A DNA stretch of 64,000 bases, taken from the NCBI GenBank assembly GCA_964476445.1, contig CAYZAK010000001.1, positions 8,351-72,350 on the forward strand, written 5' to 3'. Positions 26,237 to 64,000 of the stretch are shown here, piece by piece. This stretch comes from an uncultured bacterium (GTDB lineage Bacteria; CG03; SLGR01; JAGXOG01). Below the pieces are notes generated by a model, which saw only the letters and a program-made list of their open reading frames with translations, was not told where the DNA came from and did no database searches. The position numbers were made by a program, and so were the translations under genes. How positions within the stretch are numbered: position 1 is the first letter of the stretch; each line of letters opens with the position of its first letter.

Positions 26237-26282
26237 AAATTTTCAGATTATTTAAATCCGGTAAAAGTACGGTGTTCCGGCG

Positions 26283-32882: not shown

Positions 32883-33104
32883 TTATTCTTCTTCTTTTAA
32901 ATTGGAAAGTTCTTTCCAGGCTTCTGCGTTGATATTTTTACGGTACTCTTTAACTTTTTCTACAATTTCTTCAATTTTTTCTTTAACCATTAACCGGTTT
33001 CCGCTGGTAAGAGAGATATGAGTATCCGGATGGGCGGTAATTGTCTCTATTAATTCGGCATTTAAAACTATCCGGGTACCGTTCATTTTTGTCACAGTTA
33101 TCAT
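32883..33104 (-). CDS. flbD: FlbD-family flagellar protein
   Basis: MITVTKMNGTRIVLNAELIETI...TLTSGNRLMVKEKIEEIVEKV matches the short FlbD family encoded immediately upstream of motA in spirochaete and Firmicute flbD-motA-motB operons. Confidence 0.75.
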   Translation of the reverse strand: MITVTKMNGTRIVLNAELIETITAHPDTHISLTSGNRLMVKEKIEEIVEKVKEYRKNINAEAWKELSNLKEEE

Positions 33105-33106
33105 AA

Positions 33107-37426: not shown

Positions 37427-37542
37427 AAGATTATCAAGTACTAATGTAAAATTTGATTTTTTTCAAGTTTTAAATTTTATTTTACAGTTTTATATTATTA
37501 TATCCTTATTTTTCTATTGCCATTTTCATTGTATTTATATTC

Positions 37543-39495
37543 TTAATGAACTTCTACCCATTCTTTTAATTCCTGATTATCCGGATTTAACTGCAGGGAT
37601 TTTTTATAAGAAGCTTTAGCTTTACTTTCCTCCCCCATAGCTAAATAACAGGAGCCCATATATTGATGGGTCTGCCATATATCAGGGTTGTACTGTAAAG
37701 ATTGCTGGAATTGCTGCACGGCCTGGCTGTAATTTTCGTTCTTATAGGCTTCCAGACCCTTTTCATAAAACTTAAAAGCTATTTCATCGTTATTGGTCTC
37801 TTCTTTTGGCGGACTTTCCATATTTTCTTTTTCTTCAATTGCTTCTTTGGCCGCATTTATTATGTTCTCAAGAACGGACTCTTTCTCTTCTTCTCCAAGT
37901 TCTTCTTCCCAAAGCTCCGCAGTTCCTTCCCCTGTTACACCCGTTATAGTACCGTCCGCTTCCAATTCTTTTATTTTGGCTACAATACCACGCTGACTGT
38001 TTTTTATCTGCTCTCCAGTCACATTACGACCGTATTCAATCTCTTCTTTTAATAAAGCTGCCGCTCCTTCACTCATGTTTTCCATAAACCTCTCCCTGAA
38101 CTCTTCAGAAGTATTTTTAAGGGCAACTCCCAGATCTTTGGTTTCTACTTCCTGGATAATCATCTGTATAGCCGCATCATCCAGATTCATTATATCTTCA
38201 AAACTAAAAATTTGACTTTCAACTTTCTGAGAAAATTCAGGATCTTCTCTGGAAATAGACTCAAGTATCTGATCTCTCTCAGTTTCGCCCATCACCTCCA
38301 GCATACCTACCAGCTTGTCCGCTCCACCGGACACATATTCTATCTTTTGGCTTAAAAATTCATCCACGTGCTCCATAATCTCTTTTGAAGTGCATTGCAT
38401 ACTCACTATCTTTTTAGCAATTTCCGCTTTATTCTCTTCCGGTAAAGCGGCTAACACTTTTGCCGCTTTCGGCGCATCTAAATAATCTATTAACAGTGCC
38501 GCCACAGACGGCTTTTCAAAATTCAAAAGATAGGCCAGTTTTTTTAAATCTTTATTCTCCAAAAACTTTAAAGGTTTATAGGTCATTTTTTCAAACTCCT
38601 CCTCTTCGGTCTCTTCTTGTGTTTCCCCTTCTATATATTCTCCGTCTTCAATTTCTTCTTCCGGTTTTTCTTCATCAAATTCTTCCTCCAGTTCTTCTTC
38701 CATTTCCATTTCAGTTTCCCCGGCCCCCATACCGGCACCTATGCCGCCACCGCCGGCCGTGGCACCGGTAAATTCTGTTTCGGATTTCATCTTTTTTAAA
38801 TCTTTTAAAGTCTGAAGAGTAGCAAAAAGAAATTTACGGAGAGGACCGAACAGAAAAAGGCCAATTATACCCAAGGTAATTAAGCCCAGGACGATTACAT
38901 AAAAATAAGGATTAAATAAAAACCCTACAAAATCAATAGTTCTCCCGGCAAAATCCACCCGCTGAATAGTAAGCCTGTCTCCCCGGGCCGGATTTATATC
39001 AAGAACATCGGTTAGTACATTTTCAATAGTTAGTACGGTTTCATCAGGTATTCCCCGGTCCAGTATTAAACTGACCTGAATACTAGCCAGAAATTCAGAA
39101 GGCAGAGTAATTACATCTTCTATTCTTTTTGCCCCGCCGGTACCTCTTTCGGCATCCTGATCTTCGGGCTGTTCCTCTAACTGTTGTCTTCTTAACGGAA
39201 CTCCGGGAAGGTACTCTTCTACTTCAGGGGAGTACGGCTGATCTTCTTCTCTTTCTTCGGACCACTGCTCGGTCTGAGTTCTGGATTTTTCCAGATCGGC
39301 CAGCTCAACGCTGACAATGACCGATGATTTTCCCTCCCCTACAATTCTTTCCACTATACCGCTTAAATGGGTTTCCAGGCGCTGTTCAGTTTCCATCTTC
39401 TGATTTATCAGGGTAGTATAATCAGAGAATTCAGCTTGGCCCATAAAAAGGGGTACTGCCAACAGTACTGCCAGTTTTTTTAGTATATTTTTCAT
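37543..39495 (-). CDS. Membrane-anchored FliF-like ring-building-motif / FliG (middle + C-terminal domains) / TPR fusion protein
   Basis: Residues ~35-185 contain two FliF/YscJ-like RBM blocks: RLETHLSGIVERIVGEGKSSVIVSVELAD and SIQVSLILDRGIPDETVLTIENVLTDVLDINPARGDRLTIQRVD (cf. FliF ASVTVTLEPGRALDEGQISAVVHLVSSAVAGLPPGNVTLVDQSG). TM at ~187-218; acidic/Gly-rich linker. Residues ~305-525 align with the FliG M and C domains: ILESISREDPEFSQKVESQIFSFEDIMNLDDAAIQMIIQEVETKDLGVALKNTSEEFRERFMENMSEGAAALLKEEIEY versus T. maritima ILESLEEEDPELAEEIRKKMFVFEDILKLDDRSIQLVLREVDTRDLALALKGASDELKEKIFKNMSKRAAALLKDELEY. The C-terminal ~85 aa form TPR repeats. Stop overlaps the upstream FadL-like gene start (ATGA). 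Confidence 0.7.
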   Translation of the reverse strand: MKNILKKLAVLLAVPLFMGQAEFSDYTTLINQKMETEQRLETHLSGIVERIVGEGKSSVIVSVELADLEKSRTQTEQWSEEREEDQPYSPEVEEYLPGVPLRRQQLEEQPEDQDAERGTGGAKRIEDVITLPSEFLASIQVSLILDRGIPDETVLTIENVLTDVLDINPARGDRLTIQRVDFAGRTIDFVGFLFNPYFYVIVLGLITLGIIGLFLFGPLRKFLFATLQTLKDLKKMKSETEFTGATAGGGGIGAGMGAGETEMEMEEELEEEFDEEKPEEEIEDGEYIEGETQEETEEEEFEKMTYKPLKFLENKDLKKLAYLLNFEKPSVAALLIDYLDAPKAAKVLAALPEENKAEIAKKIVSMQCTSKEIMEHVDEFLSQKIEYVSGGADKLVGMLEVMGETERDQILESISREDPEFSQKVESQIFSFEDIMNLDDAAIQMIIQEVETKDLGVALKNTSEEFRERFMENMSEGAAALLKEEIEYGRNVTGEQIKNSQRGIVAKIKELEADGTITGVTGEGTAELWEEELGEEEKESVLENIINAAKEAIEEKENMESPPKEETNNDEIAFKFYEKGLEAYKNENYSQAVQQFQQSLQYNPDIWQTHQYMGSCYLAMGEESKAKASYKKSLQLNPDNQELKEWVEVH

Positions 39496-41090
39496 TCCAT
39501 TAAATCCTCTATTTCAAATTCTTCACTGTCTCTATCCACCGGCCGGCGAACCTGATTAATAAAATTCCTCAGATCATCATCGGCCGGATTAAGCTGCAGA
39601 GATCTTTCCCAGGCCTCCACAGCTCTCTCTTCGTTGCCTATAGAGTAAAAAGACGAGCCAATTCTTTTGTACGCCTGGGCGTTTTCGGGCTCAATAACCA
39701 GCACTTCCTGGTATTCTTCAATGGCCTGGGCATAATCCTCGTTGTAAAAATGCTGAAGTCCCTTATGTAATTTGTACTCGGCCAGGGACATTCCCGAAAC
39801 AACTCTTATCCGGGGATCTGCTAAATTTTCCTTTTCCCCTATCCATCTTAAAAGCTCTTTAGCCTGTTCATCAGTGGGATCTTCAGTAATTATGTGATTT
39901 AAAGCCAGTACTATGATATCAACATTATCATTTTCTATGTACTCCCTTATACCTCTTCTTAAAAGAGAACCCGATCGGGTATCCTCCACTTTACGGGGAA
40001 TCCATTCTGCTATATCGGATAAAATATCCCTTTTTCTGGATACTTCACGGTCAAAAGGATTTAAACTGTAAGCTTTTTCAAAACTTTTCAAGGCATCGTC
40101 ATAAAGACCTTCCCGGTAAGCCACATCACCTTCCGTTTTATATTCCCGGGCGGACCTTTCCTTTATTTCCTTAACAGAACGTCCGAAACTTATAGTGGCC
40201 GATAGCCTGTGCGAGCCACCTAAATCATGGGCCGCATAGGCATAATCCACTCCGTAATCATCATATTCAATTCCAAAACCCAGGTTTAATTCCTGGGGAT
40301 CTATACCCATCCTGAGAGCCAGATAATCCAGAGCCCAGAACTCCATCCCTATATTGTAAGGAAGTCCGCTATCCCAGCCTATGGCAGTACTTATATCCGC
40401 ACCCAGGGACAACCGGTCCCTTAATAACTTGTAATTCACTCCCAAACGGGCCATTATGGGTAATTCATCGGAAGTATTGTAGGATTCGGAAAGTAAATTC
40501 TGCATATTCAATCCCACTCTTAAATCCTCTATGGGGGTATATATTCCCCCAATATCTAAAATATAACTGCCGCTTTTATGATTATCAAGGGTATGGCTCA
40601 TTTTTTTAAAGGTTCCTCCAACTGCCAGCTCTTCTAAAATTCTCTGGCCGTAAGATAAACCGTAAGCACTCTGAATATCCTCAAATGTATGGGTAACTCT
40701 ATTTTTGGCATCTCTTCCTTCAAATCCTCCCATAAAAAGCCGAGTTCCCGAAAACCCGAAAGTTCCCCCGAACTCGGTGGGCTGAACATAACTTACAAAA
40801 TCATATACCGACCCTCCCCATAAAACTGAATGAAGAGCAGTTAATTCACTCCGGTGAAGGTCAGCCAGTCCGGCTGGATTCCAGTAAGTAGCCGAAGCAT
40901 CGTCGGCCAGGGCAACAAAAGCTTTTCCCATGCCCAGAGACCGGGCTCCCGCTCCCCAGGACATAAAAGCACCGGGCATACCCCCACGACCGCTCTTACG
41001 AGCCCAGTTTAAAGTAAACTGGCCCAGCGAAATTATATAAGCCAGAACAATTAATACCAAGACTGATTTTTTTATCAATTTATATATCAT
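39492..41090 (-). CDS. FadL/PorV-like outer-membrane beta-barrel protein with ~230 aa C-terminal TPR extension
   Basis: Signal peptide MIYKLIKKSVLVLIVLAYIISLG (start set at ATG 41090); hatch-domain motif ARSLGMGKAFVALADDASATYWNPAGLADL matching FadL [27 protein letters not shown]; alternating amphipathic strands; C-terminal TPR repeats (YKLHKGLQHFYNEDYAQAIEEYQEVLVIEPENAQAYKRIGSSFYSIGNEERAVEAWERSLQLNP). Confidence 0.6.
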   Translation of the reverse strand: MIYKLIKKSVLVLIVLAYIISLGQFTLNWARKSGRGGMPGAFMSWGAGARSLGMGKAFVALADDASATYWNPAGLADLHRSELTALHSVLWGGSVYDFVSYVQPTEFGGTFGFSGTRLFMGGFEGRDAKNRVTHTFEDIQSAYGLSYGQRILEELAVGGTFKKMSHTLDNHKSGSYILDIGGIYTPIEDLRVGLNMQNLLSESYNTSDELPIMARLGVNYKLLRDRLSLGADISTAIGWDSGLPYNIGMEFWALDYLALRMGIDPQELNLGFGIEYDDYGVDYAYAAHDLGGSHRLSATISFGRSVKEIKERSAREYKTEGDVAYREGLYDDALKSFEKAYSLNPFDREVSRKRDILSDIAEWIPRKVEDTRSGSLLRRGIREYIENDNVDIIVLALNHIITEDPTDEQAKELLRWIGEKENLADPRIRVVSGMSLAEYKLHKGLQHFYNEDYAQAIEEYQEVLVIEPENAQAYKRIGSSFYSIGNEERAVEAWERSLQLNPADDDLRNFINQVRRPVDRDSEEFEIEDLME

Positions 41091-41112
41091 ATCATTTGTA
41101 CAAAAAAAATAC

Positions 41113-41149
41113 CGATTTACCTTTATAAACATGATAAAGGCAAATCGGC
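41113..41149 (-). terminator. Intrinsic terminator-like hairpin between the two FadL-like genes
   Basis: Minus-strand RNA gccgatttgcctttat-catgttt-ataaaggtaaatcggt (15-bp stem, 1 G-U) followed by AUUUUUUUUG. Lies 22 nt upstream of the ATG at 41090 and ~220 nt downstream of the stop of the 41371-42444 gene. Confidence 0.55.
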
Positions 41150-41370
41150 AATTCCAATACATCAACCTGTATTGACTTCCAATTCAACCTACTGGCAATT
41201 CAGCCTTCCTTAACTTTACCAGGAACTGTAATTTTGCGTTACGACGGTTACCCACCGGTTGCCTTTATCAGTAGTTTTTCAATATTCTATTTTCTTTTCC
41301 TATTAAATTAATAACACGAAATCCGGTTTTTTTCAAGGAATTCATTAATGTACCGGTAACTTTCCGTTAT

Positions 41371-42444
41371 TTAATTATCAAATTCAGTTCTTTTATTTTT
41401 AGTTCTTTCCATCCAGTTTCTAATTCTCTTATAATTACTATCTAAAGAATATACCTTATTGAACTCCAGCCAGGCCTTACGGTACTGTTCATCCTTAAAA
41501 AATTTTTTGCCTTTTCTGTACATCTGTTCTATTAATACCGGTTCACCGAATTTAAAATTTAAATCCACCCGATGAGAAATTCCCAGTTCCCCAAAAGGTG
41601 CCAGAGCGTAATCTAGTTCTAAATCCCCCCATCTAACACCTCCCCCAAAACGAAAAGTTTCATCTATATCCGACCGGCTATTCCAGCCGCCCCTAAAATA
41701 AAGAGATTGCCACAAGTCAAACTCCACCCCCCCACCGTATCTTAACTGGTCATTTATATAAATAACGTCGGCGGCTATAAGGGTAAATTTATTCAGTCTT
41801 AATCCCAGACCCGTAAAAAATGAAACAGGCATAGAAGGAACTTCTTCAACCAGCCTCCCGCTCACCCCGGCGTTTTTAACCCCCCCCGAAAGCCACAATC
41901 CTTCAACAGGTTCTACTATAACTCCCCCGTCAAGTCCCACGGCAAAAACACTGTCTTCATGGAGTTGTTCAAATATTCCCTTTAAAGTTAATCCACCGGA
42001 CAGGTACCGGGTAATCCTCTGGGCCTGGGTGTAAGATATATAGTAGTCCCTGGCCGACAATGTCCCGGAAGGTTCCCCATACCAGTCATACCCTTCTATC
42101 TGCTCCACTGAAAGAATGGATATATTAATCCCCCCGGCGGCCATATTCTCCATAGGAAAAGCGAACCCTATTCTCTGCTGGTTTACATCTTGAAAATACT
42201 GATTGTGCATAGCCGAAACAGAGTATCTTTCCACATATCCCAGCCCGGCAGGGTTCCACCAGTAGGCATTGGGGCCATGAGAAACCGCCGTGCCCACCCC
42301 CATTCCTATTTCCCTGGCCCCCACGGGCAAATTAAGAAAATCAAAGGCCGTACTCCCCGGGCCGCTTCCCCAAAGAGAGGGAATTGCTATAACAGATATA
42401 TAAAGAAAAATTATGTATGATTTTTTTAGTATTTTAATCGTCAT
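41371..42444 (-). CDS. FadL/PorV-like outer-membrane beta-barrel protein (paralogue of 39492-41090) with short C-terminal TPR
   Basis: Signal peptide; same hatch motif VGAREIGMGVGTAVSHGPNAYWWNPAGLGYV; C-terminal QMYRKGKKFFKDEQYRKAWLEFNKVYSLDSNY TPR-like repeat; its start overlaps the stop of the 1915-aa CTD protein by 4 nt. Confidence 0.6.
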   Translation of the reverse strand: MTIKILKKSYIIFLYISVIAIPSLWGSGPGSTAFDFLNLPVGAREIGMGVGTAVSHGPNAYWWNPAGLGYVERYSVSAMHNQYFQDVNQQRIGFAFPMENMAAGGINISILSVEQIEGYDWYGEPSGTLSARDYYISYTQAQRITRYLSGGLTLKGIFEQLHEDSVFAVGLDGGVIVEPVEGLWLSGGVKNAGVSGRLVEEVPSMPVSFFTGLGLRLNKFTLIAADVIYINDQLRYGGGVEFDLWQSLYFRGGWNSRSDIDETFRFGGGVRWGDLELDYALAPFGELGISHRVDLNFKFGEPVLIEQMYRKGKKFFKDEQYRKAWLEFNKVYSLDSNYKRIRNWMERTKNKRTEFDN

Positions 42445-42700
42445 CTTATTATCATCAGTTTACCGGTTTTCCGGTTCCCGCCGCTTTTTATATGATAGAT
42501 ATAAGTCCCGCTGGCCACAGTCGCTCCCCGGGTATTTTCCACCGGATACCAGTTGTAAATTCCCGGCTGGGGCGCCTGGGCGTCAGAATGTTTCAGCGTT
42601 TTAACCACCCGCCCGGAAAGAGTGTATATTTCAATTTCGCATTCTGCAGGCAGATATCTGAAAGTAATACCGTCCCGGGGGGCGCCAGTTGGCCTCTCGG
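42441..42700 (-). other. T9SS-type C-terminal sorting domain (CTD) of the 1915-aa protein
   Basis: Terminal ~80 aa with the IY.LSGR.V...G.Y.W...G..VASG.Y.Y.I..G...GKL pattern ending in basic residues. Confidence 0.55.
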
Positions 42701-45700
42701 ACGGTTTATAGGGAACCGGATAGGGATGAGAGTCCTCCATATCGTAATTTCTTCCCCCCATTACCGTGTATACACTAAAATTTTTAAGAGGTGCGCTTAC
42801 CCTGTTTTCTTTGATATTTACCTTCGATGAGATCGGAACCCATTTTTTAGAATTTTCGTCAAGGTAGTAAACTTTAAGAGTACTTTCCTTTACCGGGGGA
42901 TTTAAACCGCTCCTTAAATATTTATCCTCGTAAAGTAAATCAGTATAGTCAAAAGTTATGGTTCCCAGATCTTCAAAAATTTGGTTTTGAGCTATCCCTT
43001 CAGTGGATCTGAAAATTACTTCAGTTGTAAATTCCTCAAACGGATAGTGAAACTTATCCCCCCAGGTCGCCTCAGCGTTATTTGCCGATATTACTTCCGA
43101 AACAGAGGCCAGCTGAGGTTCATTCTGGGGAATTTCTTCGGTGAACTCTATACGGCCGGAAGAGGGAAACTGGCCCGGTTCAACGGTTACTCTTATTCTT
43201 CCCGATGGACTGACAAGGTGATTTCTGTCTTCGTTTTCCACGATAGTCCGGAAACTCCATTTAAAATCTTCATGCATGTTTATCCTGAAAAGGGAAATAA
43301 TATTTTCAGAAGATACCTTTACCCTTATTTTAGAGTTGCCCGGCAGTGACCGGGCGGGAGTAAAAGTTATTGAAGACATGACCACACCCTGCTCGGTTTC
43401 CCGGGGCTGGGCGTAATTTCCGGCCTGAACCGAACTGAAGTGAATTTCCCGGTTAACTTCATTTCCTTCGGAATCGTTAACCTGAATAACCCTTAGGGCG
43501 TCCGAAATTCCTTCGGGAAGTATAAACTGGTCAATATAAATTTCTATCCGGGCGGTGGTATTGTCCTTATTTTTATCCAGTATATGTTCAAGATCCTCAG
43601 GAAACACGGATACAATTCCGGGTCCTTCCTCTTCCTCGTCAATATCTATAAAAATATCAAAATTTTCTTCCGGATCCACCTTATTCCCCGACAGATCTCT
43701 TATTGTCCGGCTGCTGACATCAAGATAGAGCTTGTCATCATCCGCTTCCTCCCGCAAACTCCATATTATATTATGTTCTTCTTCGGGTATCCCTATATAA
43801 ACACCCTTAGAATTCATCTCGCCGGTCTCTATAGTATAAATCTCGCCGGTAAACTCCCGTTTATTTTCGGTGGACGCATATATCGAAAGACCGTCCAGTT
43901 CTATGGTGGTGGAGGAAAGTTCCGGGGAAGTCCATACATCCATGTACTGGTTAAATTCAAGGAAAAGACGAATATCTCCCCCTATAATTTTATAGGTCGC
44001 CTCTTCCAACTGCGGTGAGGTCTCATCCCGGTGCCAGTTAATATCCTGTCTGAATAAAGCGGTGGCCCTTTTTATTGAGTAATTGCCGTGGGTATCTGCG
44101 GTGGCCGAAGATAAGATCCGAAGAAACGGTTCGCCTCCGGGGGGTTCCCCGGCGGCCCGGAAAGCGGCGTCCCACCGGGAAATTTTTTGGCGAAGATGTT
44201 TAGGTATAATAATTTCAACAGCCGAACCGGGGGGACCCACAGTACTGTAATCGAATCCTACAAGAGAAACAGGATTCTCTAATGAGGTCGAACTTTTATA
44301 TAATTCAATCTTTGTAATATCAGTTTTTTCTTTATCTAATTCAGGATGAGGCTCGTTCTCAAAACTTTCTCTTTTGAACTTTAAGTTCAATATAGATTCA
44401 TCGTGTTCATAATAAGTACCGGTTATATCTAAAATTGGTCGGGAATTATTTATTAAAAATTCTTTGCTGGTTAATTTATAATCTATTCCGGGTATCCCGG
44501 ACGAACCGTCATTTACGATTACCCTTAATTTTGTCTGTTCATTATAGGCCCCTTCTTCATCCTGTTGAGAAAGCCAGTTAAAAGTTACCGTGTTAGTACC
44601 GTATTCGGTAACGATATTTTTTATTTGATACTCTTCTTCCGGAGTAAATTCCACGTTCTCTTTCCCTTCAGTTACCGCCCCGGTAGAAGGTAAAGTTGCT
44701 TTTTGCCAGGGAGCATCCGGAGCAGTAGAATACTCCACTTTAAACCTTACTTCGTAGTTAGATTCAGCCCCTACATCCACCTTTACTATTACTTCACCGG
44801 AACCGTCTCTTTTCTTATTCGGGGTTTTTGAAAAAACAGCAGACGGAGGGTCCCGGGTCAAAGCTGTAGTGGTGGCTGTTCGGCTTTCATACCCAAACTC
44901 ATCATAAGCCCACAGACAACCCCAGTACCTGGTATCTCTTTGATGTTTCAGAGTTGTCGTTGATTGAGTATCTATATTTTTAAATTCTATAACCTCCGCT
45001 GTAGAAGTATCTCTGTATATTACATACTCATAACCTGAACTGGAATACCATAATTCATACCGGTCAAAATTCGCTTCTACTGCCTTATCCCACGACCAGT
45101 CCATACTTGTTTCAATGGGATTTTCTATTTGTACATTACCTAAAACCGGGGAACTAATATCTACCGTAAAATCTGTATTATAACTAGCAGAAGTTTCATC
45201 TTTATGATCAGTAAACTTAAGCTGAACAGCGGTAATACTATAATCCTCACCGGCGGCCGGTTCTAAATCTTCTTTTGCATTCCAGACAAAAGTATAGGTG
45301 GAAAACTCATTGTTAAAATTTAATTCCGGGCTGAACTTTTTATCTTTATAGGATGGAGCCATAATATAATTTTCTCCGGCGCCCAGCCAGAACTGGTTTC
45401 CATCCGGAACATAGGTGGAAATTTCCACGTCGTGATCTTTTCCTTCAAACTCAATATCTACCAGTCCGGAACCATCCCTTCTCTGAGCCGCCGAAAGAAT
45501 ATTTACTTTGGGCGGATGATTGGTCTTTTTTACAGCTTTATATGAATAACTATAATTTCCAAAATTATCGTACCCGAAAATAGAAAAATGGTAGGTGGTA
45601 TCCGGGGTAAGACCCGAAACGGTCACCGAAGACCTGCCCCCGTAATAAACAAAATCCAGAAATCCATACCCGGGATTATCTTTTGTAATACAGCCGTCGT

Positions 45701-48188
45701 AAAATTCCGGTTGATGATAGGGAGCTTCACCCGGCGAGGGATCCTCCAGCCAGAATATCTTGTACTCTCGAAAATTAGTATCCACGGCGGTATGAGTGCT
45801 TAAATCAAACTCTATACTCTGCCGGTCATAATTTTTTGTTGGCTCCGGGGGGCCGGGTTTTTGGGGATTTTTATTGTCCACCGTAAATGTGGAAGATACA
45901 ACCGTGGTGGATGCACCGTGAATATCAAAAATAGTATATTTTATCCTGATATCCCCCTCAAAATTTTGGGGAAGATGCTGACCGGTTATCCAGGTGAAGG
46001 TACTCATCTCAAAATCCGATGTAGCCGGGTAGTAATGGTAATCGCTTTTTGAGTGGTCCCAGACTCCTTTTAAATTTTCATCCTCATCGGCTACCGGATG
46101 CCATTGGCCGGCCGGCGAAGTGGAGTATTTAAATCCGGTGAGGTAGCAATCGTTAAATTCCAGATCCAACAATTCAAAATGGATATCCAGGTGGTACCTG
46201 TTATCCGCAATATATTCTAAAGGTTCATCTTCAAAGACAAAGTTTTTATCCCTCTGCTGAGCCCCGCTCCACATTCCTTCGGGCGGGGTATTTACTATCT
46301 GGCTGTCCGACCAGCCGCCTCGATTTTTAGCCGTATTTACAGCCTGAACCTGCCAGTAAAAAGTTCTTGAGGGTATATTGAGATAGACATAGGTGGACCG
46401 TCCAATATTCCCCCAGAACCCCCCCGACCTGTCGGTAGTTCCCATGGCCCCGGATATTACTGTCCAGGGTCCAAATTCTGATAAAGAACTTATCCGGATA
46501 TTATAAGCAAGCTGACTTTCGCTAGTTTGGTAATCGTCGCCGGGACCCCACTCAAGTTTTAGATGCCCCTCCTGAAAATCATAGGCCCCGTTAAACTCTC
46601 CTGAAGGGGGGGAAGGGGGTTCGTTTACCGGCCCGTCATTATTTACAAAAAATATATCGCTGTCTTCACGCAGGCCCCAGGTCATATCCAATCTGCTGTC
46701 ATTTGTAAAATCATAAAGAATGGTAGACCGGGCCTCTTCATTATTATTAAAACTGTGGCCAAACATTTCAAACGTATCCTGACCCTCGACATATTTATAC
46801 AGACGGTTATAATTATCTGAGTTTCCCGAAAAGTAGTCCATCATACCGTCTCCGGTAATATCCCCGGAGGAAACAGAATAACTGCTGTCCGTCTCCCAGG
46901 TTTCCCCGACCAACTCGAATTTACCGGATCCGTCGTTTATATAGTAAACATCCGGTTCATTCTGTTCGTTTACCGCCACAAAATCCCATATCCCGTTTCC
47001 GTTGATATCGGTAACCGCCACTCCCCGGGTGTTGTCAGGCTGCTCACCGGTTATATCCTTTAAACTAAAATTACCTTCGCCGTCGTTTATAAAAATCCTG
47101 TTGGGCTCCCCGTCAGTACCCCCGTAATTCCCAGCTATAATATCCAGGTAGGAGTTCCCGTTGACATCGGCAAGGACCACCGAAAGAGTATTGTCAGCTG
47201 TTGGAACATCAGGCAACTCCTGCGGAGCACCGAATTTTCCTGTGCCGTCATTAAAAAATATCCGGTTTTCTGAATTGTAAAGAGCCTCTACAAAATCCAT
47301 GTGCCCGTTACGGTTTATATCCCCTACCGCTATGGCCCGGCTGGCCGTGTTGTGTCTTCCCAGCTCCCGGTCAAACTCGAAATTACCGTCACCGTCGTTC
47401 ATATAAATTGCAATATCCCCGTAAGGGGTGACAGTCTCATTTATTATTATAAGGTCCAAATATCCGTTGTTATTTAGATCAACCAGGGCTACCACGCGGG
47501 AATGAGTATCCTCAATGCTCTGGCTTAAACTGAACGAACCGGTCTGATCGTTAATATAGATATCCACCGTTCCTCTGTCGTGTCGGGCCAGTACTAGGTC
47601 TGTATAATCGTTGCCGTTTATATCCCCCGCGGCATGGCCTTTGTTAGAACCCTCGCTCTCGTATTCAAAAATTTTTCGGCGTATAAAATGGTTCATTTCA
47701 AAAAATGCCGGAACAGAATAAGGGGAGACTTTATCCGCTTCATCCCAGGTTCTCACCGCCCAATAGTAGGTGGCGCTGGATTTTAGTTCCTCCTCTCCTC
47801 CGCCGGGAAGGCCGTAAGAGGTATAGGTATGGGTGGATTCCACCTTGGAGCTGTCCCAGCTATTCCCGGTACCCGTTTCCACATCCCCCAAATCTGTGGA
47901 GACAATTACCTGCCAGGCGCTCTGTTGGACCCCGGGATCGGGAATCCAGCTAAACTCAGGACGGGGTTCCTCTACACCACCAGGATTTCCCGGCTCAATC
48001 CAACCCTCAGTCCTCAGATCGTCAGGAGCTTCTACGGCCAGGGAAATCCCCGAAACCCATAATAACAAAACCGGAATTAATATTAACTTCTTTTTTATTT
48101 TTATTGTTAAATTCACCTGATTATCCAAAATATAATCTCTTTTTTCTCTTAACCTAGATATTATGTCAAATACGCCAAATATATTCAA
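42441..48188 (-). CDS. Giant (1915 aa) cell-surface protein: FG-GAP/VCBS beta-propeller, FN3/Ig-like domains, T9SS-type C-terminal sorting domain
   Basis: N-terminal signal/TM; at least six FG-GAP repeats (DINGNDYTDLVLARHD, DLNNNGYLDLIIIN, DINRNGHMDFVEALY, DVNGNSYLDIIAGNYGG, DINGNGIWDFVAVN, DITGDGMMDYFSGN); C-terminus ...CEIEIYTLSGRVVKTLKHSD...GIYNWYPVENTRGATVASGTYIYHIKSGGNRKTGKLMIIR resembles the Por secretion-system CTD. Confidence 0.7.
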   Translation of the reverse strand: MNIFGVFDIISRLREKRDYILDNQVNLTIKIKKKLILIPVLLLWVSGISLAVEAPDDLRTEGWIEPGNPGGVEEPRPEFSWIPDPGVQQSAWQVIVSTDLGDVETGTGNSWDSSKVESTHTYTSYGLPGGGEEELKSSATYYWAVRTWDEADKVSPYSVPAFFEMNHFIRRKIFEYESEGSNKGHAAGDINGNDYTDLVLARHDRGTVDIYINDQTGSFSLSQSIEDTHSRVVALVDLNNNGYLDLIIINETVTPYGDIAIYMNDGDGNFEFDRELGRHNTASRAIAVGDINRNGHMDFVEALYNSENRIFFNDGTGKFGAPQELPDVPTADNTLSVVLADVNGNSYLDIIAGNYGGTDGEPNRIFINDGEGNFSLKDITGEQPDNTRGVAVTDINGNGIWDFVAVNEQNEPDVYYINDGSGKFELVGETWETDSSYSVSSGDITGDGMMDYFSGNSDNYNRLYKYVEGQDTFEMFGHSFNNNEEARSTILYDFTNDSRLDMTWGLREDSDIFFVNNDGPVNEPPSPPSGEFNGAYDFQEGHLKLEWGPGDDYQTSESQLAYNIRISSLSEFGPWTVISGAMGTTDRSGGFWGNIGRSTYVYLNIPSRTFYWQVQAVNTAKNRGGWSDSQIVNTPPEGMWSGAQQRDKNFVFEDEPLEYIADNRYHLDIHFELLDLEFNDCYLTGFKYSTSPAGQWHPVADEDENLKGVWDHSKSDYHYYPATSDFEMSTFTWITGQHLPQNFEGDIRIKYTIFDIHGASTTVVSSTFTVDNKNPQKPGPPEPTKNYDRQSIEFDLSTHTAVDTNFREYKIFWLEDPSPGEAPYHQPEFYDGCITKDNPGYGFLDFVYYGGRSSVTVSGLTPDTTYHFSIFGYDNFGNYSYSYKAVKKTNHPPKVNILSAAQRRDGSGLVDIEFEGKDHDVEISTYVPDGNQFWLGAGENYIMAPSYKDKKFSPELNFNNEFSTYTFVWNAKEDLEPAAGEDYSITAVQLKFTDHKDETSASYNTDFTVDISSPVLGNVQIENPIETSMDWSWDKAVEANFDRYELWYSSSGYEYVIYRDTSTAEVIEFKNIDTQSTTTLKHQRDTRYWGCLWAYDEFGYESRTATTTALTRDPPSAVFSKTPNKKRDGSGEVIVKVDVGAESNYEVRFKVEYSTAPDAPWQKATLPSTGAVTEGKENVEFTPEEEYQIKNIVTEYGTNTVTFNWLSQQDEEGAYNEQTKLRVIVNDGSSGIPGIDYKLTSKEFLINNSRPILDITGTYYEHDESILNLKFKRESFENEPHPELDKEKTDITKIELYKSSTSLENPVSLVGFDYSTVGPPGSAVEIIIPKHLRQKISRWDAAFRAAGEPPGGEPFLRILSSATADTHGNYSIKRATALFRQDINWHRDETSPQLEEATYKIIGGDIRLFLEFNQYMDVWTSPELSSTTIELDGLSIYASTENKREFTGEIYTIETGEMNSKGVYIGIPEEEHNIIWSLREEADDDKLYLDVSSRTIRDLSGNKVDPEENFDIFIDIDEEEEGPGIVSVFPEDLEHILDKNKDNTTARIEIYIDQFILPEGISDALRVIQVNDSEGNEVNREIHFSSVQAGNYAQPRETEQGVVMSSITFTPARSLPGNSKIRVKVSSENIISLFRINMHEDFKWSFRTIVENEDRNHLVSPSGRIRVTVEPGQFPSSGRIEFTEEIPQNEPQLASVSEVISANNAEATWGDKFHYPFEEFTTEVIFRSTEGIAQNQIFEDLGTITFDYTDLLYEDKYLRSGLNPPVKESTLKVYYLDENSKKWVPISSKVNIKENRVSAPLKNFSVYTVMGGRNYDMEDSHPYPVPYKPSERPTGAPRDGITFRYLPAECEIEIYTLSGRVVKTLKHSDAQAPQPGIYNWYPVENTRGATVASGTYIYHIKSGGNRKTGKLMIIR

Positions 48189-48224
48189 CCGGCCGGATTA
48201 TGGGAAGATTCTTTGGGTCTTAAT

Positions 48225-48540
48225 TTACCTTATTATGGCTATCCGCCGGGTCTTTTCCACCGTTCCTTCGTCGGATTTTACCACTATTCGGGCCAGGTAC
48301 CCACCTTTAGCCACGTCCTGACCCCGCTCGTTTACGGCGTACCAGGGGAAACTGTTGTGTCCCTGCCGACCGCCGTTCTCCCCGGCGTCAAATTCCCAGT
48401 ATTTAACCAGATACCCCATCATATCGTACAGATATACTTCAACATTGGCGTCCTGATTAAGAATGTAGGTTATCTTAGTCTTCTCGGCGCCCAAATCAAA
48501 CCGGGCGGGATTGGGATAGTTGGATACCTCGCTTACAACC
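48225..48540 (-). other. T9SS-type C-terminal sorting domain of the giant adhesin
   Basis: Last ~100 aa SNYPNPARFDLGAEKTKITYILNQDANVEVYLYDMMGYLVKYW...GGYLARIVVKSDEGTVEKTRRIAIIR: NP.NP start, Y.Y.D..G..V, G.Y..R pattern of Por_Secre_tail-like CTDs. Confidence 0.6.
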
Positions 48541-51500
48541 TCATCGGGCATTCCGGTAACCGCAGGTTCGGAAATTTCCGACCACGGTCCCCAGTTTCCG
48601 GCGTTATCCCGGGCCCTTACCCGGTAGTAATAGAAATGGCCGGGATCTTTTTCTTCAATGAAATAACTGTTATTATCCGAAGAAACATAAGCTACTGTCT
48701 GCCAGTCAGGTGAAGTATCTCTTCTTTCCTGAACTTCATACCGGGCGACCCCGCTTTCCGTTTCCGAAGCATCGTCCTGGGCGTCATCCCAGCTTACGTT
48801 ATAAGAGACCATGGGTTTATCCTGTCTTTGCTGATCGGGAACGGGTTTACCGGGTTCGGTCGGCGGATTCAGATCCACTCTGAAACTAGCTTCCCCGTGC
48901 CCCGGCGACCAGACCACGTTGCCTTCGTCATCCTGGGATGCTGTTCTTACACGGAAAGTATAAATTTCACCGTGTCTTAAAGATAATCCGTGTAAAGTAG
49001 CTTCGGCCGAAGACCATCCCTCGGAATCGGACGTTTTACCCAGGTCTCTAAATTCGGCACCGGCGGCAGAATAAAGATTATGGGTAATACCTTCTTCAGA
49101 AGTGGTATGAGATCTCCAGTTGGCACGGACCGTAGTGGGAGAATTTATCCACTCTTCCACGTCTACCTCCGGTATAGTGGGAGCATACTCGTTTCTTATG
49201 AGCATGGCCGCCACTTCAAAAAACGGTTCCTTTTTCTCTCCGGTAATTATTCTCTGCTGGGGAGTTATATTTAAATTTGTGGTTATATCCGACTCCAGTC
49301 GGAGACCGATTAATCCGTTCACCCGAGCGGCGTGAGCAACATCAAAAGTCAGGTAATAGATCTGATACTGAGCGGTTATCACATTACCAGTAGTTAAATC
49401 TATCCTGGCCGCGCCGGCTTCAAAAATGTCATCGCCGGAAGTTACAAGCATATCTTTAACCGGGTCGAACTCCCCGTCTCCGGTGGTATCCCGGTACATC
49501 TTTATAATGTCTATACCGGTATCGTCAAGATCGCCGGTTTTTAAAAACCGAAGATAATTCAAAGTGGGTCCACCATCGGCGCCGGCTGCGGTTTGGGTCG
49601 CCACCCGGACTCTGAATTCAGCCATGGTTACATCCCTCTCATTCTGTCTGGCCCCCGCCGGAGAAACATCCACCGGCTCAAAATCAATTTTAATCGGATC
49701 TATAAAGGCTTCTTCGCTTTCTACAGGGTAAATCTCAGGTTGTTCGGCAATCTCATTGTTACCGCTGATTGAGAATATTCCGGGAGAAGTAATCCGGGAG
49801 CCGGGGGCATGCTCCGGTTCAGCTTCCACTGCAATATCGTAAACAATAAAGTACCGTCTTGCCCGCGAACCTATAGTCTGTATGTGTTCTTTAGGGAAGG
49901 TTATATTCACATCTCTTCCTTCAGAAAAAACTTCTGTGGAAAGAGTTATCAACCGGTCCGCTCCGGGTTCAAAAATACCGTTATTGTTGGAGTCATAGTA
50001 TATCTTAACCGCTTTAATATCATCTATTATGCTTTCACCGGTAAGTTCTATTCTAACCCCGTACCAGTCGGCTTCGGCAGAAGGTATATAGGGATCCGGA
50101 TTTCTGGTGGTAAGAGTGAACTGGTCCATAAGGACATCGCCCTCTCCCTGGACAACCCGGGCAGGGGTCGGAGGACGTCCGTCCGCATCCCTTTCGGGAG
50201 TTAACCGTATAATATCTTCAAATTCGGTTATTTGGGCCAGCGAAGTAGTGAAATCACCCTCATCAAATTCTATCCAGTCATTATTAATTCCCGGTTGGGA
50301 CATATTCTCATCCACCGTAGATTCCCATAGCTGTTCCTGATATTCAACCACATCTCCTATCTGATAAGCCTCTTCTTCCTCTTCCGGTTCGCTCCACCGG
50401 GAATAATTTCTCCATCTCACTTCATCCCAGTCCCCAACATACCTAAAGTCATCGGTATTGAAACGTATTCCAACCTCTCTTCCCACGCGGGCCTGGTTGG
50501 ACATTTCAAGGACAATAAAATATCTTTGAGGATTGGTATCTATTGTCTGATAATTCTCTTCCCTGAAATTGAGTTCGCAAACCCCGTCCACAAAAATATT
50601 CATGGCGTCGCTTACAAGTTCGGCGGTTTCCGGGTCAAAGACTCCTTCATCCTGGGTATCTTTGTAAATTCTGGCGCTGGAAATATCCGGGTCGGCGGCG
50701 TCTCCCTCTAAATGTATATCCATCCCGGTCCATATAGATGCATGGGCATCGGTCTCCAGCACAATTGTACCGGCCAGAAGTCTGCCGTAAGGATTGTCTT
50801 CAATTTCTTCGTATTCAATTTCTCCTTCCTCATAAAGGTCCCTTAAATGCTGAAAATACCGTACACTGTCTCCCTGAACTACTCTGAGCATTTCCCGGTC
50901 ATCGGGAGTTACTATCATGGTATCCTCTGTGGGATCAATCTGAATATGTCTGGTCTCAAATTCTATATCATCCACGGCATGAGGATAAGCTACCGTGAAG
51001 TATCCCCGGTCTCCGATTCTTAACCCCACTTCACTGTTATTGTCAGCGTCAGCGGAAATATCGGCTACTATAAACCAGAAGTTTTCCTCATCTGACCTAA
51101 TAATCTGACTTCCATATTGGTCGGTAAAATTCAGATTGACAAATCCGTCCCGAACTTCGCCTTCGGCCACCAGTTCATCCACATCCGGAGTGAACGGAGG
51201 TTCTTCCCCGGGGTCATGGGGGGACTCGTTCCGGTAAACAGCAACCCGGGAAAAATCGCTGTCTCTGGAATAATCGTTGCCCACTCTACGCAATCTCAAT
51301 CCCTCCCAATCCACGTGGTAACCGTCAACTTCCATATCCAGTGTGGCCATGTGAACATCTCTTGTCCCCTGAAATTCACGGACCGGAGCTTTGTCTGCAG
51401 GATCCACAGTTACTAAACTGGGCGAAGCTATTATAGTGGAAACCTGAGTGATATAAGGCAGATTTTCGTCGCTCATAGTATTGGGAGAAGATATGGAAAA

Positions 51501-54500
51501 ATTAGCCTGTTCATTAATAGACAGCTGAATAGTTCTATCAGGTACAGCGTGACGATCCAGGTCCAGGGAAATGATAAATGATTTGGGCAGAGGCTCAAAG
51601 CTGCCGTCAGGTTCGCCTAACATCTGGGCTTTATCTTCAGGTATCCTAATCCGGCATACTCCTTCGGTAAACCTGTTCCCGGTAGATATTCTTACATCAC
51701 CGGTATTAATCCGGCCGGTCAGATCTTTATCCCACCACAGGGTGACGTTTTCTATGTCCTCATCGGAGGCGGTACCCTCCTGGAAAAGTACCAGGGCGGG
51801 TTCATTTTCTGCTTCGTTATCCATCCAGTGAGCATAAGAAATTTTTGTTTCAAAATTAAGCCGTAAAGTGGGCATATCAGTTCTGTTCTGGATAAAAAGC
51901 CCGTCCTGTACCCCGGTATCCGGATCGGTAATCTGGTAAGAAATATCCGTGGGCTCGACAGTAACGGTATCCGGATAGGGATTCACTATTTTTTCAGAAA
52001 CATCAATTGGAATCTGAGCATCTGAAACCTGATTGGGATCCGTCACAGTAAAATAATCCGTATCGGCTATTCTTATACCCAGTGATTCATCTTCCGGAGC
52101 GTAAGGATTAAGATCTATAGTCACCAGATAACGCCTTGGATAACCTGGAGTTCCACTGTCTCTTATATCCTGGTGGTTGTCTTCGTCAAATTCCATAAAA
52201 GTTGTCGAAGAACTGAATACGTCGGCTCCCTCTGATATAAGCCTATCTGCCAGTCCCGTGGGACTATTGGTAGTGGTATTAACCACCGGCTGGCCGGCAG
52301 CGTCCGTAGAACCGGATACCCACCACCAGACCTTGACTGCGTCAACCCATTCATCGGTAAGGGACCCGGTCTTATCCACCCGGAGACCGGTCCATATTAC
52401 TGAGTTTGCATCCGAACGTAAATCCAGTATTGAATATGCAGCGTTCCGGGCACCCTGTCTTATATTGCCCATTGTAGAATCTCTGGCTATAAGCAAAGTA
52501 TCTTCGGTGGGCTGAATCTCAGGCTGGGGTGTATCTTCATCCGCAGGCATAGGAGCGGGAAAGGTATCTTCTTCACCGGGATCCTGAACCCCGTCTCTGT
52601 TTTTATCGTTAAAATCCAGAACTCTGTTTTCTCCTTCATCGTCCCTGGCTATAACTCTGTCGGGAGAATCAATCCTTATACCCACTTCTGCTCCCGGAGT
52701 GGCCGCAGGGTCAAAATCTAGAGCCACAAAATAGGTCTGGGTAGACTCTCTTATGGTCTGGGGCCGTTTTTCAAATTCTCCGTCCACGTAGTGCCCTATA
52801 TCAATCATAGCCACTCCTTCTATTTCGGCACCGAACCTATCGTGACCGGAACTAATAATTTCATCGGCTAAGGGTTTAAAATCCTTATCTCCCGTCGCGT
52901 CCCGGAAAATTTTTATAGCCCGGATATCGTCATCACTAACTCCGTCTCCACGCAGGGTAACTCTTAACTCAGTCCAGTCAATAGTATACCTGGTGGTAAC
53001 CATATCGAAGGCCATAAAACCTACATCTTCTTCAGCCTGTCTTACCGTATCGGTATCTTTTATAAGAGACCAGGACGGCATAACAATATCTCCGGGCGCA
53101 ATTCTCACCGTAACTGTGGGAGTATTAATATCAAAGTTATTGTCAGCTACTTCGGTACCTCTCCATCTTCCGGAGGCTGAAAAATATCTTTTTTCCCAGT
53201 GCAGGTTCAGGTAGTTATCCGGTTCGGCGTCATAGGCCATATCCACGGTTATAAAATAGTGTCTGGCACTTTGACCTATATATTGGGGATGACCGGTATT
53301 TTCCTCCAGATCCAGTATGGCAAACCCGTTCTGAAAAGTTCCCGAAGAGAGCAAAGTTTCCGGAGACGAACCATCAAGATTATTGGGGTCGTCCGGTTCC
53401 GGCGGAGTAAATGCTCCGTCACCGTCATCCAGCCATATTCTGACAGCTATTACATCTTCATCGGGAACCGTACCTTCCAGATCCACCCTCATTTCCGACC
53501 ATTCGGCAGTTCCGGTGGTGGTAAAAATATCCAGCCGGTCCATTAAAGCGTTTGTATGATCCTGGAAAAGATCGTCAACGGTCATTCTTTCCCCGGTCAT
53601 TGCGTCCGTGTAGGGCCGTACTATGGCCCCGGTCACGGTAAGCTCATCGGATTCGCCGTATATTGTATCGTCTTCTGAATCGGTCATCTGTATAACTATG
53701 GGCTCAACCCCCACCGCTTCGTCGGTAACTACATCGGCTCTTATTTCAGCGGTCAGTTCGCCGGGCTCCCAGAATTCGTGCCCCACCGAATTTGCAAAAT
53801 CATAAGTTTCCGTCTGGCTTCCGTCTATCGTAAATATAGGACGTCTCTCCTCGGGATAACCGGGCGCTACTATATTAAAGGTAGCCTTTCCCACATAGTA
53901 ATGCCAGGTATCCGTTGAACCATAAGGTTTATTGGGATCCGGATGTCCGGATGCATGGTTCCCGTAGGTATCCTTCGCGGTTATGTCCACTCCTTTATTC
54001 CGGTACACTGTAGCGTAATTGTTATCATGTAAATCCAGTTCAAACTCCACCGGATCGGCCGGATATACGTTTACAACCTGGCTGGCCTCTTCCCAGCCCC
54101 GGTAAGGATCTTCGGATACCGTGACCTTATTTTTGCCCGCCACACGCGAGGTATAGTAAAATGAGGAAGAATGACTTCCCCCGGGAATTGAAATAACGCT
54201 AACGCCCCAGTTTTCACCGCCATCAGTGGAAAAATTCGCGCCCGGATCTTCGATTCCGGGTGGACCCGTGGCATCCAGACTCAGATCCACCGATTCTTCC
54301 ACACGGGAATAGTTGCCGTATTTATCCCTGGCCTGAACGGTGATTCTATAATCTTCCGGATTGTACTGAGTGTAATCGGAATACTCCGGAGATACTATTA
54401 TATTCCGGGTGGAAGTAATTATCTCCAGCTGGGTTATTTCTCCTCCTACCACTTCAACTTCCTGACGGCCCCAGTTCCAACCTCCGGCAGCCCTTTCGGC

Positions 54501-63992: not shown

Positions 63993-64000
63993 TATTTCCT

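Follow-up and report, generated by a model that had tools for sequence, protein, structure and literature searches.

Is an outer-membrane barrel whose gene directly follows that of a large surface protein the private partner of that protein, or is it a shuttle shared with others? The question is raised by two overlapping genes on contig CAYZAK010000001.1 of an uncultured bacterium, within a stretch of 64,000 nucleotides that was analysed as a whole and is referred to here as the window. The upstream gene encodes an FG-GAP propeller protein (the cargo protein) with a predicted type IX secretion system (T9SS) C-terminal domain (CTD), and the downstream gene encodes a barrel of the PorV/PorQ family (barrel 2). 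A first-pass annotation, made from the sequence alone, had likened this arrangement to SprB/SprF pairs and suggested that barrel 2 is dedicated to its neighbour rather than being a general shuttle. Our data are best accommodated by a surface propeller adhesin that is exported by Sec and bears a type A-like CTD, for which a barrel of the PorV/PorQ family, encoded on the same transcript, acts as the private receptor; we regard this reading as reasonably probable.

The cargo protein and barrel 2

The two genes, the parts of their products and the adjoining hairpin are located as follows.

42441..48116, minus strand: cargo gene, 1891 amino acids (aa); predicted order of signal peptide, immunoglobulin (Ig) domain, seven-blade FG-GAP propeller, Ig/FN3-like stalk and type A-like CTD; open reading frame (ORF) open up to TTG 48188
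47691..48023, minus strand: Ig_Rha78A_N-type immunoglobulin domain, ORF residues 56-166 (Pfam PF25788, 73.3 bits vs cutoff 27.4)
46629..47651, minus strand: FG-GAP (integrin-alpha-like) propeller with seven blades and Ca-binding-type loops, ORF residues ~180-520 (FG-GAP_3, 122 bits, and seven spaced motifs)
42735..46628, boundaries approximate, minus strand: middle region, probably a beta-rich Ig/FN3/Big_5-like stalk (weak NDNF/FN3 match and matches of orthologues)
42444..42734, minus strand: predicted T9SS type A-like CTD, last 97 aa, ending in ...GKLMIIR and conserved in orthologues (TIGR04183, 29.0 bits when isolated)
42441..42444, minus strand: ATGA overlap of the cargo gene stop and the barrel 2 start, read from the sequence
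41371..42444, minus strand: barrel 2, 357 aa, PorV/PorQ-family outer-membrane barrel with 14 predicted strands, NPA hatch motif and a three-helix tail resembling tetratricopeptide repeats (TPR) (NF033709, AlphaFold2 model, Foldseek)
41377..41535, minus strand: TPR-like tail of barrel 2, residues 304-356, predicted to be periplasmic; model helices 304-317, 321-334 and 341-356, conserved in the family alignment
41100..41150, minus strand: terminator-like hairpin, 17-pair stem followed by T8, lying after barrel 2 and ahead of where the gene for a barrel-TPR fusion (barrel 1) probably starts

The last 97 residues of the cargo protein resemble a type A sorting domain. The corresponding model, TIGR04183 (cutoff 23), scored 23.4 bits with the full-length sequence and 29.0 bits with this segment alone, and the match reaches the last residues. 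In an alignment of eight CTDs, consisting of six orthologous domains and those of two giant proteins, all members matched TIGR04183, and all eight likewise matched the PorU and PorZ models in their CTD segments. When the PDB sequences were searched with a profile of these domains, only three matches were returned, at weak E-values (0.03 to 1.1); all are T9SS CTDs, belonging to PorU (6za2), to PorZ (5m11) and to a Por sorting domain in 8glj. By contrast, the type B models stayed below threshold: CHU_C (PF13585) reached 15.9 bits vs a cutoff of 27, and TIGR04131 gave no match even at E≤10. Because of the matches to TIGR04183 and to the PorU and PorZ CTDs, and because type B was sub-threshold, the tag is by these profiles type A-like and not type B. 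Membership of barrel 2 in the PorP/SprF family was not supported by the hidden Markov models (HMMs) either, as PF11751 and TIGR03519 gave no match when Pfam and NCBIfam were scanned at E≤0.01. Thus, the Por-type CTD of the first-pass annotation was borne out and its subtype could be assigned, while the likeness to SprB/SprF holds for the gene arrangement but neither for the CTD class nor for the barrel family.

The 1915 codons initially attributed to the cargo gene are those of the ORF 42441..48188 (minus strand) counted from TTG; the gene called on the source contig (ENA ERZ27266011 k141_484687, 81 kb), whose proteins are also encoded on an NCBI contig of 161 kb, starts 24 codons further inside. 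The GTG at 48116 is probably the actual start. Immediately after it lies a basic and then hydrophobic, signal-like segment whose hydrophobic part covers ORF residues 33-55 (KKKLILIPVLLLWVSGISLA), and which is therefore a predicted Sec signal peptide. The N-terminal Ig domain is followed by a propeller of the FG-GAP, integrin-alpha type, for which Pfam reported FG-GAP_3 in six stretches (122 bits) and FG-GAP (49.5 bits). The strict form of the Ca-loop motif, D.[ND].[DN]G..D, occurs only three times. The relaxed form D.[NTD].[ND][GDS]..D occurs seven times at a spacing of 48-53 residues (ORF residues 189, 237, 290, 341, 394, 443 and 493), compared with a mean of 0.07 across 2000 shuffles, and these regularly spaced repeats therefore indicate seven blades, in agreement with the at least six of the first-pass annotation. 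The FN3/Ig-like domains postulated downstream of the propeller are less evident: in the ~1300-residue middle region Ig/FN3 content is weakly detectable with Pfam, the single FN3-type match being sub-threshold (NDNF, 21 bits vs cutoff 27). Orthologues give Big_5 and fn3 matches, which support an Ig/FN3-like stalk, and judged from these sequences the middle region is probably a long, beta-rich Ig/FN3/Big_5-like stalk.

The ATG of the 357-aa ORF shares four nucleotides with the TGA of the cargo gene (...AGATGACG...), exactly as had been noticed before. Its product passed the cutoff of the PorV/PorQ family model NF033709 (99.8 bits vs 90). An AlphaFold2 model based on 16 homologues (mean predicted local distance difference test score, pLDDT, 81.9) displays hatch helices at the N-terminus, 14 strands and, at the C-terminus, a TPR-like tail of three helices, so that barrel 2 is predicted to adopt the FadL-like fold with an N-terminal hatch. 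The best PDB matches of this model in Foldseek are PorV chains in SprA complexes (8gl6_F, E 1.9e-12; 6h3i_F, E 2.0e-11), to which it is 13-14% identical; TodX and FadL rank after PorV (E 1e-9 to 1e-7). The designation as a FadL/PorV-like barrel hence proved correct. Within the family, the WWNPAG motif is kept (N64 and P65 invariant, W63 and A66 in at least 90%), and the TPR-like tail is conserved across the alignment. Close homologues are rare: 14 sequences with 49-55% identity were found among 5.8 billion clusters, and all those with a named source come from Elusimicrobiota. The terminator-like hairpin downstream of barrel 2 implies that the FG-GAP/barrel pair may form its own transcription unit.

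Conservation of the pair and of its gene order

Pairing of cargo and barrel is conserved in at least five Elusimicrobiota genomes. At four loci (L003, L005, L007 and L008) an orthologue of 1871-2010 aa with Ig_Rha78A_N, FG-GAP_3 and Big_5 domains is followed directly by the barrel gene, with an overlap or a gap of at most 2 nucleotides; the same arrangement is present at L014 and L015, where the upstream gene is cut by the contig end. A search with the full-length cargo protein was dominated by generic FG-GAP proteins and added only three clear orthologues. At L005, L007 and L008 the two genes stand by themselves between AlaRS-RecX-Mut7-C and a HEAT_2 gene, beyond which LigA and the rib operon follow at L005 and L007, where the contig reaches that far. 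In the genome of the window, Mut7-C and HEAT_2 are adjacent with a gap of 143 nucleotides (L094, 11359-11503, left of window position 211) and the pair is absent from this site; it is found 40 kb away, within a cluster of motor-like genes described below. Since three relatives carry the pair at a site that is empty here, the two genes have been moved, or kept, as one unit.

The same sequences bear on the identity of the host, which by homology and synteny belongs to Elusimicrobiota, outside the phyla with reported T9SS. The window LigA is 52% identical to that of an Elusimicrobia metagenome-assembled genome (MAG) with which it shares rib-operon synteny. A spirochaetal origin of the cluster, considered on account of models from Leptospira (UPF0164, FlcA, Bat), was dropped, as the named homologues are all from Elusimicrobiota and the housekeeping synteny is with the Elusimicrobia MAG.

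How general is the order of CTD gene and barrel gene? A scan with the barrel alignment, in which each GTDB species was represented by one genome, yielded 80 loci. According to the record titles these belong to Elusimicrobiota, Firestonebacteria, Nitrospirota, KSB1, Zixibacteria, Calditrichota, Ignavibacteria, Rhodothermales, Cytophagia, Marinimicrobia, Armatimonadota, Desantisbacteria and others. Pairing was counted in the non-redundant loci (92 barrel genes) by means of a simple gene model and an HMM built from the eight CTDs. For 77 of the 92 barrel genes, a gene on the same strand lies upstream at a distance of no more than 400 nucleotides, and in 55 of these 77 cases (71%) it ends in a CTD, as compared with a background of 7.9% among all gene-like ORFs of these loci (binomial p 3e-43, a value inflated by relatedness among the loci). 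Conversely, 56 of 76 CTD genes have a barrel directly after them. The gap between the two has a median of 2 nucleotides, and 22 pairs overlap. The test is not circular because the loci were selected by the barrel alone.

We considered whether this statistic merely reflects canonical porU-porV operons and rejected the explanation: among eight upstream CTD proteins of ~1000-1200 aa that were scanned, none is a PorU sortase, only the CTD segments matching. Three of these eight, all of them encoded in Elusimicrobiota, combine an NHL or PQQ/BamB-like propeller and a type A CTD, and propeller proteins with a CTD are indeed recurrent 5' of such barrels (FG-GAP here, SBBP at L028, NHL at L076, PQQ/BamB-like at L051 and L066). 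Several pairs can occur in one MAG; JAFGSA01 harbours L005/L016, L018, L047 and L011, and contig MGUG01000007 alone has three. The presence of several barrels per MAG, each located behind its own CTD gene or genes, argues for dedicated partners over one general shuttle. Together with the conservation of the pair, its relocation between two sites and the CTD-before-barrel rule, this supports the original suggestion of a dedicated partner, the physical partnership being what we infer from these patterns. Neither of the two outcomes that would have spoken against it, namely a C-terminus other than a T9SS CTD or lack of conservation of the pairing, was encountered.

Private partner, attachment module or secretion unit

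According to the reading that we favour, the cargo protein would be exported by Sec and end up on the cell surface, where its calcium-binding propeller, carried by a long Ig-like stalk, may act as an adhesin or ligand-binding protein. The type A-like CTD would be its address tag. Barrel 2, translationally coupled to the cargo on the same mRNA, would serve as the cognate outer-membrane receptor that binds the CTD and holds or delivers the cargo at the surface, similar to PorV with PorU, PorQ with PorZ, or PorP/SprF-like barrels with type B cargo, and each cargo would have a barrel of its own instead of a common shuttle. Both the binding of CTD to barrel and the surface location of the cargo are predictions from domain content.

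Among known systems, PorU-PorV and PorZ-PorQ of Porphyromonas gingivalis, where a type A CTD protein is bound to a PorV/PorQ-family barrel, come nearest in composition. The T9SS proteins PorU and PorZ are reported to remain attached to PorV and PorQ, and porU and porV are adjacent genes. PorZ combines propeller and CTD, and the CTDs described here match those of PorU and PorZ best. Unlike these systems, the pairs described here have no sortase and no homology to PorZ outside the CTD, the barrel is below the PorV and PorQ equivalog cutoffs and carries a TPR tail, and there are many paralogous pairs. With respect to gene order, the nearest counterparts are type B CTD cargo proteins with cognate PorP/SprF-like barrels, that is SprB/SprF and relatives, of Flavobacterium johnsoniae (PMC12618676, PMC9143113). 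They share with our pairs a large surface-protein gene followed by its own outer-membrane barrel gene, the CTD address tag and the occurrence of several pairs per genome, whereas they differ in CTD class (TIGR04131/CHU_C as opposed to TIGR04183), barrel family (no PorP/SprF match here) and host (Bacteroidota as opposed to Elusimicrobiota). In structure, barrel 2 is matched best by the PorV shuttle in the SprA translocon (PDB 6h3i, 8gl6), which binds type A CTDs and likewise has a FadL-like barrel of 14 strands; in F. johnsoniae, however, a single PorV is reported to serve all type A cargo, whereas here there is a barrel per cargo gene or small cargo group, at 13-14% identity to PorV.

A number of observations weigh against the private-partner reading. 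On the side of the tag, the whole-protein TIGR04183 score is barely above the cutoff (23.4 vs 23), and Pfam Por_Secre_tail (PF18962) is sub-threshold (20.2 vs 27). Barrel 2 is below all equivalog cutoffs, i.e. those of PorQ (NF033711, 86.2 vs 220), PorV2 (53.4 vs 325) and PorV (NF033710, 29.2 vs 250), and it has a TPR tail, although its overall length is close to that of solved PorV chains (345-367 residues). The pairing itself has exceptions, as the upstream neighbour lacks a CTD in 22 of 77 cases and the ratio of CTD to barrel genes is not strictly 1:1: at L047 (1868-10921) three tandem CTD genes (724, 1133 and 815 aa) precede one 306-aa PorV-like barrel, which may thus serve several cargo proteins. 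T9SS genes have been reported only from phyla of the Fibrobacterota-Chlorobiota-Bacteroidota (FCB) group (PMC11285876), and all type A CTDs of F. johnsoniae are reported to use a single PorV (PMC12618676). No SprA/Sov, PorK/L/M/N or PorU gene was detected in the 64-kb window or in the flanks that were read, no genome-wide search having been made. Our literature search for a link of T9SS or PorV with Elusimicrobiota returned nothing relevant.

Given the likeness to PorZ-PorQ, the pair might be part of the machinery, namely an attachment module analogous to PorZ-PorQ (or PorU-PorV) in which a CTD-retaining propeller on a PorQ-like barrel binds a glycan or lipid that anchors other secreted proteins. 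PorQ is indeed the second-best model for barrel 2 (86 bits), far ahead of PorV (29 bits), the CTDs resemble those of PorZ and PorU by profile match, PorZ itself consists of two propellers and a CTD, and propeller-CTD proteins are recurrent upstream of such barrels. We nevertheless judge this explanation improbable: homology to PorZ is confined to the CTD, the PorQ equivalog cutoff is missed, the stalk of ~1300 residues is typical of adhesins, and the many cargo architectures and several pairs per genome are unlike a single-copy machinery component. Treating barrel 2 as an ordinary FadL-type uptake channel for hydrophobic compounds, with its position behind a large gene being incidental, would account for the fold matches to FadL and TodX and for the conserved NPA hatch motif. 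Yet no FadL-family model of Pfam (Toluene_X) matches barrel 2, the resemblance being confined to the fold and ranked under PorV, whereas the PorV/PorQ cutoff is passed; moreover, adjacency with overlapping or near-zero gaps is kept through relocation and across phyla. We therefore regard this possibility as very remote.

Somewhat more credit, while still unlikely, is due to the idea of a self-sufficient secretion unit that needs no SprA, in which the barrel with its periplasmic TPR tail is a translocator or assembly factor recognizing the cargo CTD by a logic like that of Slam (type 11) or of two-partner secretion. A phylum beyond the reported T9SS range, a pair of genes that relocates and is retained on its own, a barrel of 14 strands bearing a conserved TPR-like tail, and the same arrangement in Nitrospirota, Firestonebacteria, Armatimonadota and Desantisbacteria (according to record titles) are all compatible with it. 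Slam provides a similar parts list, with a 14-strand outer-membrane barrel, a TPR domain and an adjacent cargo recognized via its C-terminal domain. On the other hand, no sequence relationship to Slam was detected, and neither DUF560/Slam nor TpsB was matched in Pfam and NCBIfam scans. The TPR domain of Slam is N-terminal as opposed to C-terminal here, and the tag here is a beta-sandwich as opposed to an 8-strand barrel. In addition, barrel 2 is predicted to be plugged by an N-terminal hatch bearing the FadL-type NPA motif, PorV is a shuttle and not a channel, a 200-kDa multidomain protein is unlikely to pass through a 14-strand lumen, and the same pairs are present in bona fide T9SS lineages (Rhodothermales, Cytophagia, Ignavibacteria).

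The motor-like neighbourhood

All genes in this part of the window are encoded on the minus strand. The pair is flanked by the following genes.

48225..63992, continuing beyond the window, minus strand: upstream giant protein, more than 5255 aa in the window and 8258 aa on the full contig, with a related CTD ending in ...IAIIR
39492..41090, minus strand: barrel 1, PorV/PorQ-family barrel fused to C-terminal TPR repeats (NF033709, 120.6 bits; TPR matches in Pfam)
37543..39495, minus strand: 650-aa FliF-FliG-TPR fusion (FliG_C and FliG_M in Pfam; FliF-like N-terminal model)
33107..37426, minus strand: 1439-aa K/E-rich coiled-coil protein without hydrophobic segment, conserved in the motor cluster
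32883..33104, minus strand: FlbD homologue, 73 aa (PF06289, on the called gene of L001)
31991..32878, minus strand: MotA-type stator subunit with a poly-lysine C-terminal tail (MotA_ExbB, 106.7 bits; MotA_N)
31155..31991, minus strand: MotB-type stator subunit with plug and OmpA-like domain (MotB_plug, 44.6 bits; OmpA, 55.7 bits)

The window contains exactly two CTD genes and exactly two barrels. Barrel 1 is 26% identical to barrel 2, and their alignment places its beginning at M26 of the listed 557-aa ORF (~41090); the location of the terminator-like hairpin within the 5' end of that ORF leads to the same start. The giant protein yields almost no Pfam matches, and its CTD is of the related type A-like kind. 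At L011 a giant CTD gene directly precedes a barrel-TPR paralogue, and the giant and the barrel-TPR gene of the window are therefore probably a second cargo-barrel pair, between the members of which the FG-GAP pair was inserted. The G+C content is 47-53% over the giant and FG-GAP genes (46000-64000), 30-34% over the region of the K/E-rich coiled-coil gene (33000-38000) and ~35-40% elsewhere, a contrast that probably reflects amino-acid composition, with foreign origin as the alternative.

The stop of the barrel-TPR gene overlaps the start of the 650-aa fusion gene, again by ATGA. The fusion protein comprises, in this order, a signal or transmembrane (TM) segment, a periplasmic FliF RBM3/collar-like domain, a TM segment, an acidic linker, FliG_M, FliG_C and TPR (FliG_C, E 1.6e-30; FliG_M, E 6.7e-17; TM segment at 187-224). 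It did not reach the cutoff of the flagellar FliG equivalog TIGR00207 (154.4 vs 226.7), the place of FliG_N being taken by the FliF-like periplasmic domain and the TM segments. When its periplasmic part was modelled (pLDDT 66.7), the top 18 PDB matches were all FliF MS-ring RBM3/collar structures (E 1e-5 to 6e-4), followed by SpoIIIAG and PrgK. In common with flagellar rotors and stators, the neighbourhood encodes a FliF RBM3/collar-like domain, the FliG middle and C-terminal domains with the acidic pair EE of the torque helix kept, MotA, MotB with plug and OmpA-like domain, and FlbD. In contrast to flagella, a single protein of 650 aa unites FliF and FliG parts, without the remainder of FliF and with a TPR at its C-terminus; the genes are linked to one for a PorV-like barrel-TPR protein and one for a giant coiled-coil protein, and there are no other flagellar genes nearby. 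The residue that we take to correspond to R281 of E. coli FliG, placed by means of the canonical FliG motif, is Gly.

The module of barrel-TPR, FliF-FliG fusion, coiled coil, FlbD, MotA and MotB is conserved at L003, L011 and L012, with coiled-coil orthologues of 1300-1374 aa. An exhaustive HMMER search with the fusion protein found 103 cluster representatives at E≤1e-30; among the matches listed, about 20 share the whole 600-730 aa architecture end-to-end, and others of that length match in two stretches. A diverged cluster occurs in a second Elusimicrobiota lineage (L027, 1-11062; L028, 18-11065). It contains CTD genes, a barrel-TPR gene, a FliF_C/FliG_C fusion (481-491 aa), MotA, MotB and a second MotB homologue (identified by a phmmer match in L027, its L028 counterpart having no Pfam match), and continues with a CheY-like receiver, an SBBP-propeller CTD protein, a PorV-like barrel and a LysM protein. 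A shorter FliF_C/FliG fusion with MotA, two MotB-like genes and a TPR protein is located directly upstream of a type II secretion system F and pseudopilin set on a Joint Genome Institute metagenome contig (L013, 9926-21401).

Two oppositely charged segments stand out among these proteins. The C-terminus of MotA (31991-32125) is highly basic, with 27 K/R in the last 45 residues (18-20 at L003, L011 and L012), and the FliF-FliG linker (38560-38740) is highly acidic, with 29 D/E in the most acidic 60 residues (22-26 in orthologues); both are missing from the shorter L013 and L027 versions. The two segments may form an electrostatic tether between rotor and stator. Elsewhere in the window, a Bat-type (aerotolerance) operon (19892-27266, minus strand) encodes a MoxR-like ATPase, VWA proteins resembling BatA and BatB, a TPR protein resembling BatC and one further protein of 694 aa, and a 387-aa protein (11589-12752, minus strand) matches the model for methanogenesis marker 16 metalloprotein in this bacterial genome (TIGR03287, 152.6 bits, below the cutoff of 364).

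In most free-living Elusimicrobiota, the structural genes of the flagellum are reported to be missing, while motAB, flbD and fliG, with no role assigned, are present (bioRxiv 10.1101/2022.07.08.499144), and in the literature we found no description of a FliG-like non-flagellar MotAB system. On the basis of gene order and domain content, it is tempting to speculate that the cargo-barrel pair is a module of an undescribed, envelope-spanning and non-flagellar rotary machine that acts on surface proteins of free-living Elusimicrobiota. Such a machine would have a rotor made from the single FliF(RBM3)-FliG fusion protein, driven by MotAB/FlbD stators and linked, via the translationally coupled PorV-like barrel-TPR protein, to the CTD-tagged giant and propeller proteins on dedicated PorV-like barrels. 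It might represent a flagellum-derived, T9SS-like motor that moves or exports surface adhesins in gliding or secretion, with no filament and possibly no SprA. As the FG-GAP pair is located away from the motor cluster at L005, L007 and L008, it would be at most an optional module. We regard this proposal as tentative; the neighbourhood nevertheless offers a testable context for the unexplained motAB, flbD and fliG genes of non-flagellated Elusimicrobiota.

Our analysis adds putative cognate pairs composed of the type A CTD class and PorV/PorQ barrels, present outside the FCB phyla, and thus contrasts with the views of a single PorV and of a T9SS confined to FCB. Current T9SS models assume one general PorV for type A CTDs and reserve private PorP/SprF barrels for type B cargo. 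Here, type A-like CTD genes are paired with putatively private PorV/PorQ-like barrels, including pairs in Elusimicrobiota, Nitrospirota, Firestonebacteria and others outside FCB (according to record titles). If binding is confirmed, the cognate-shuttle principle would extend to the PorV/PorQ family, and a simple genomic rule would predict surface proteins and their anchors in uncultured phyla.

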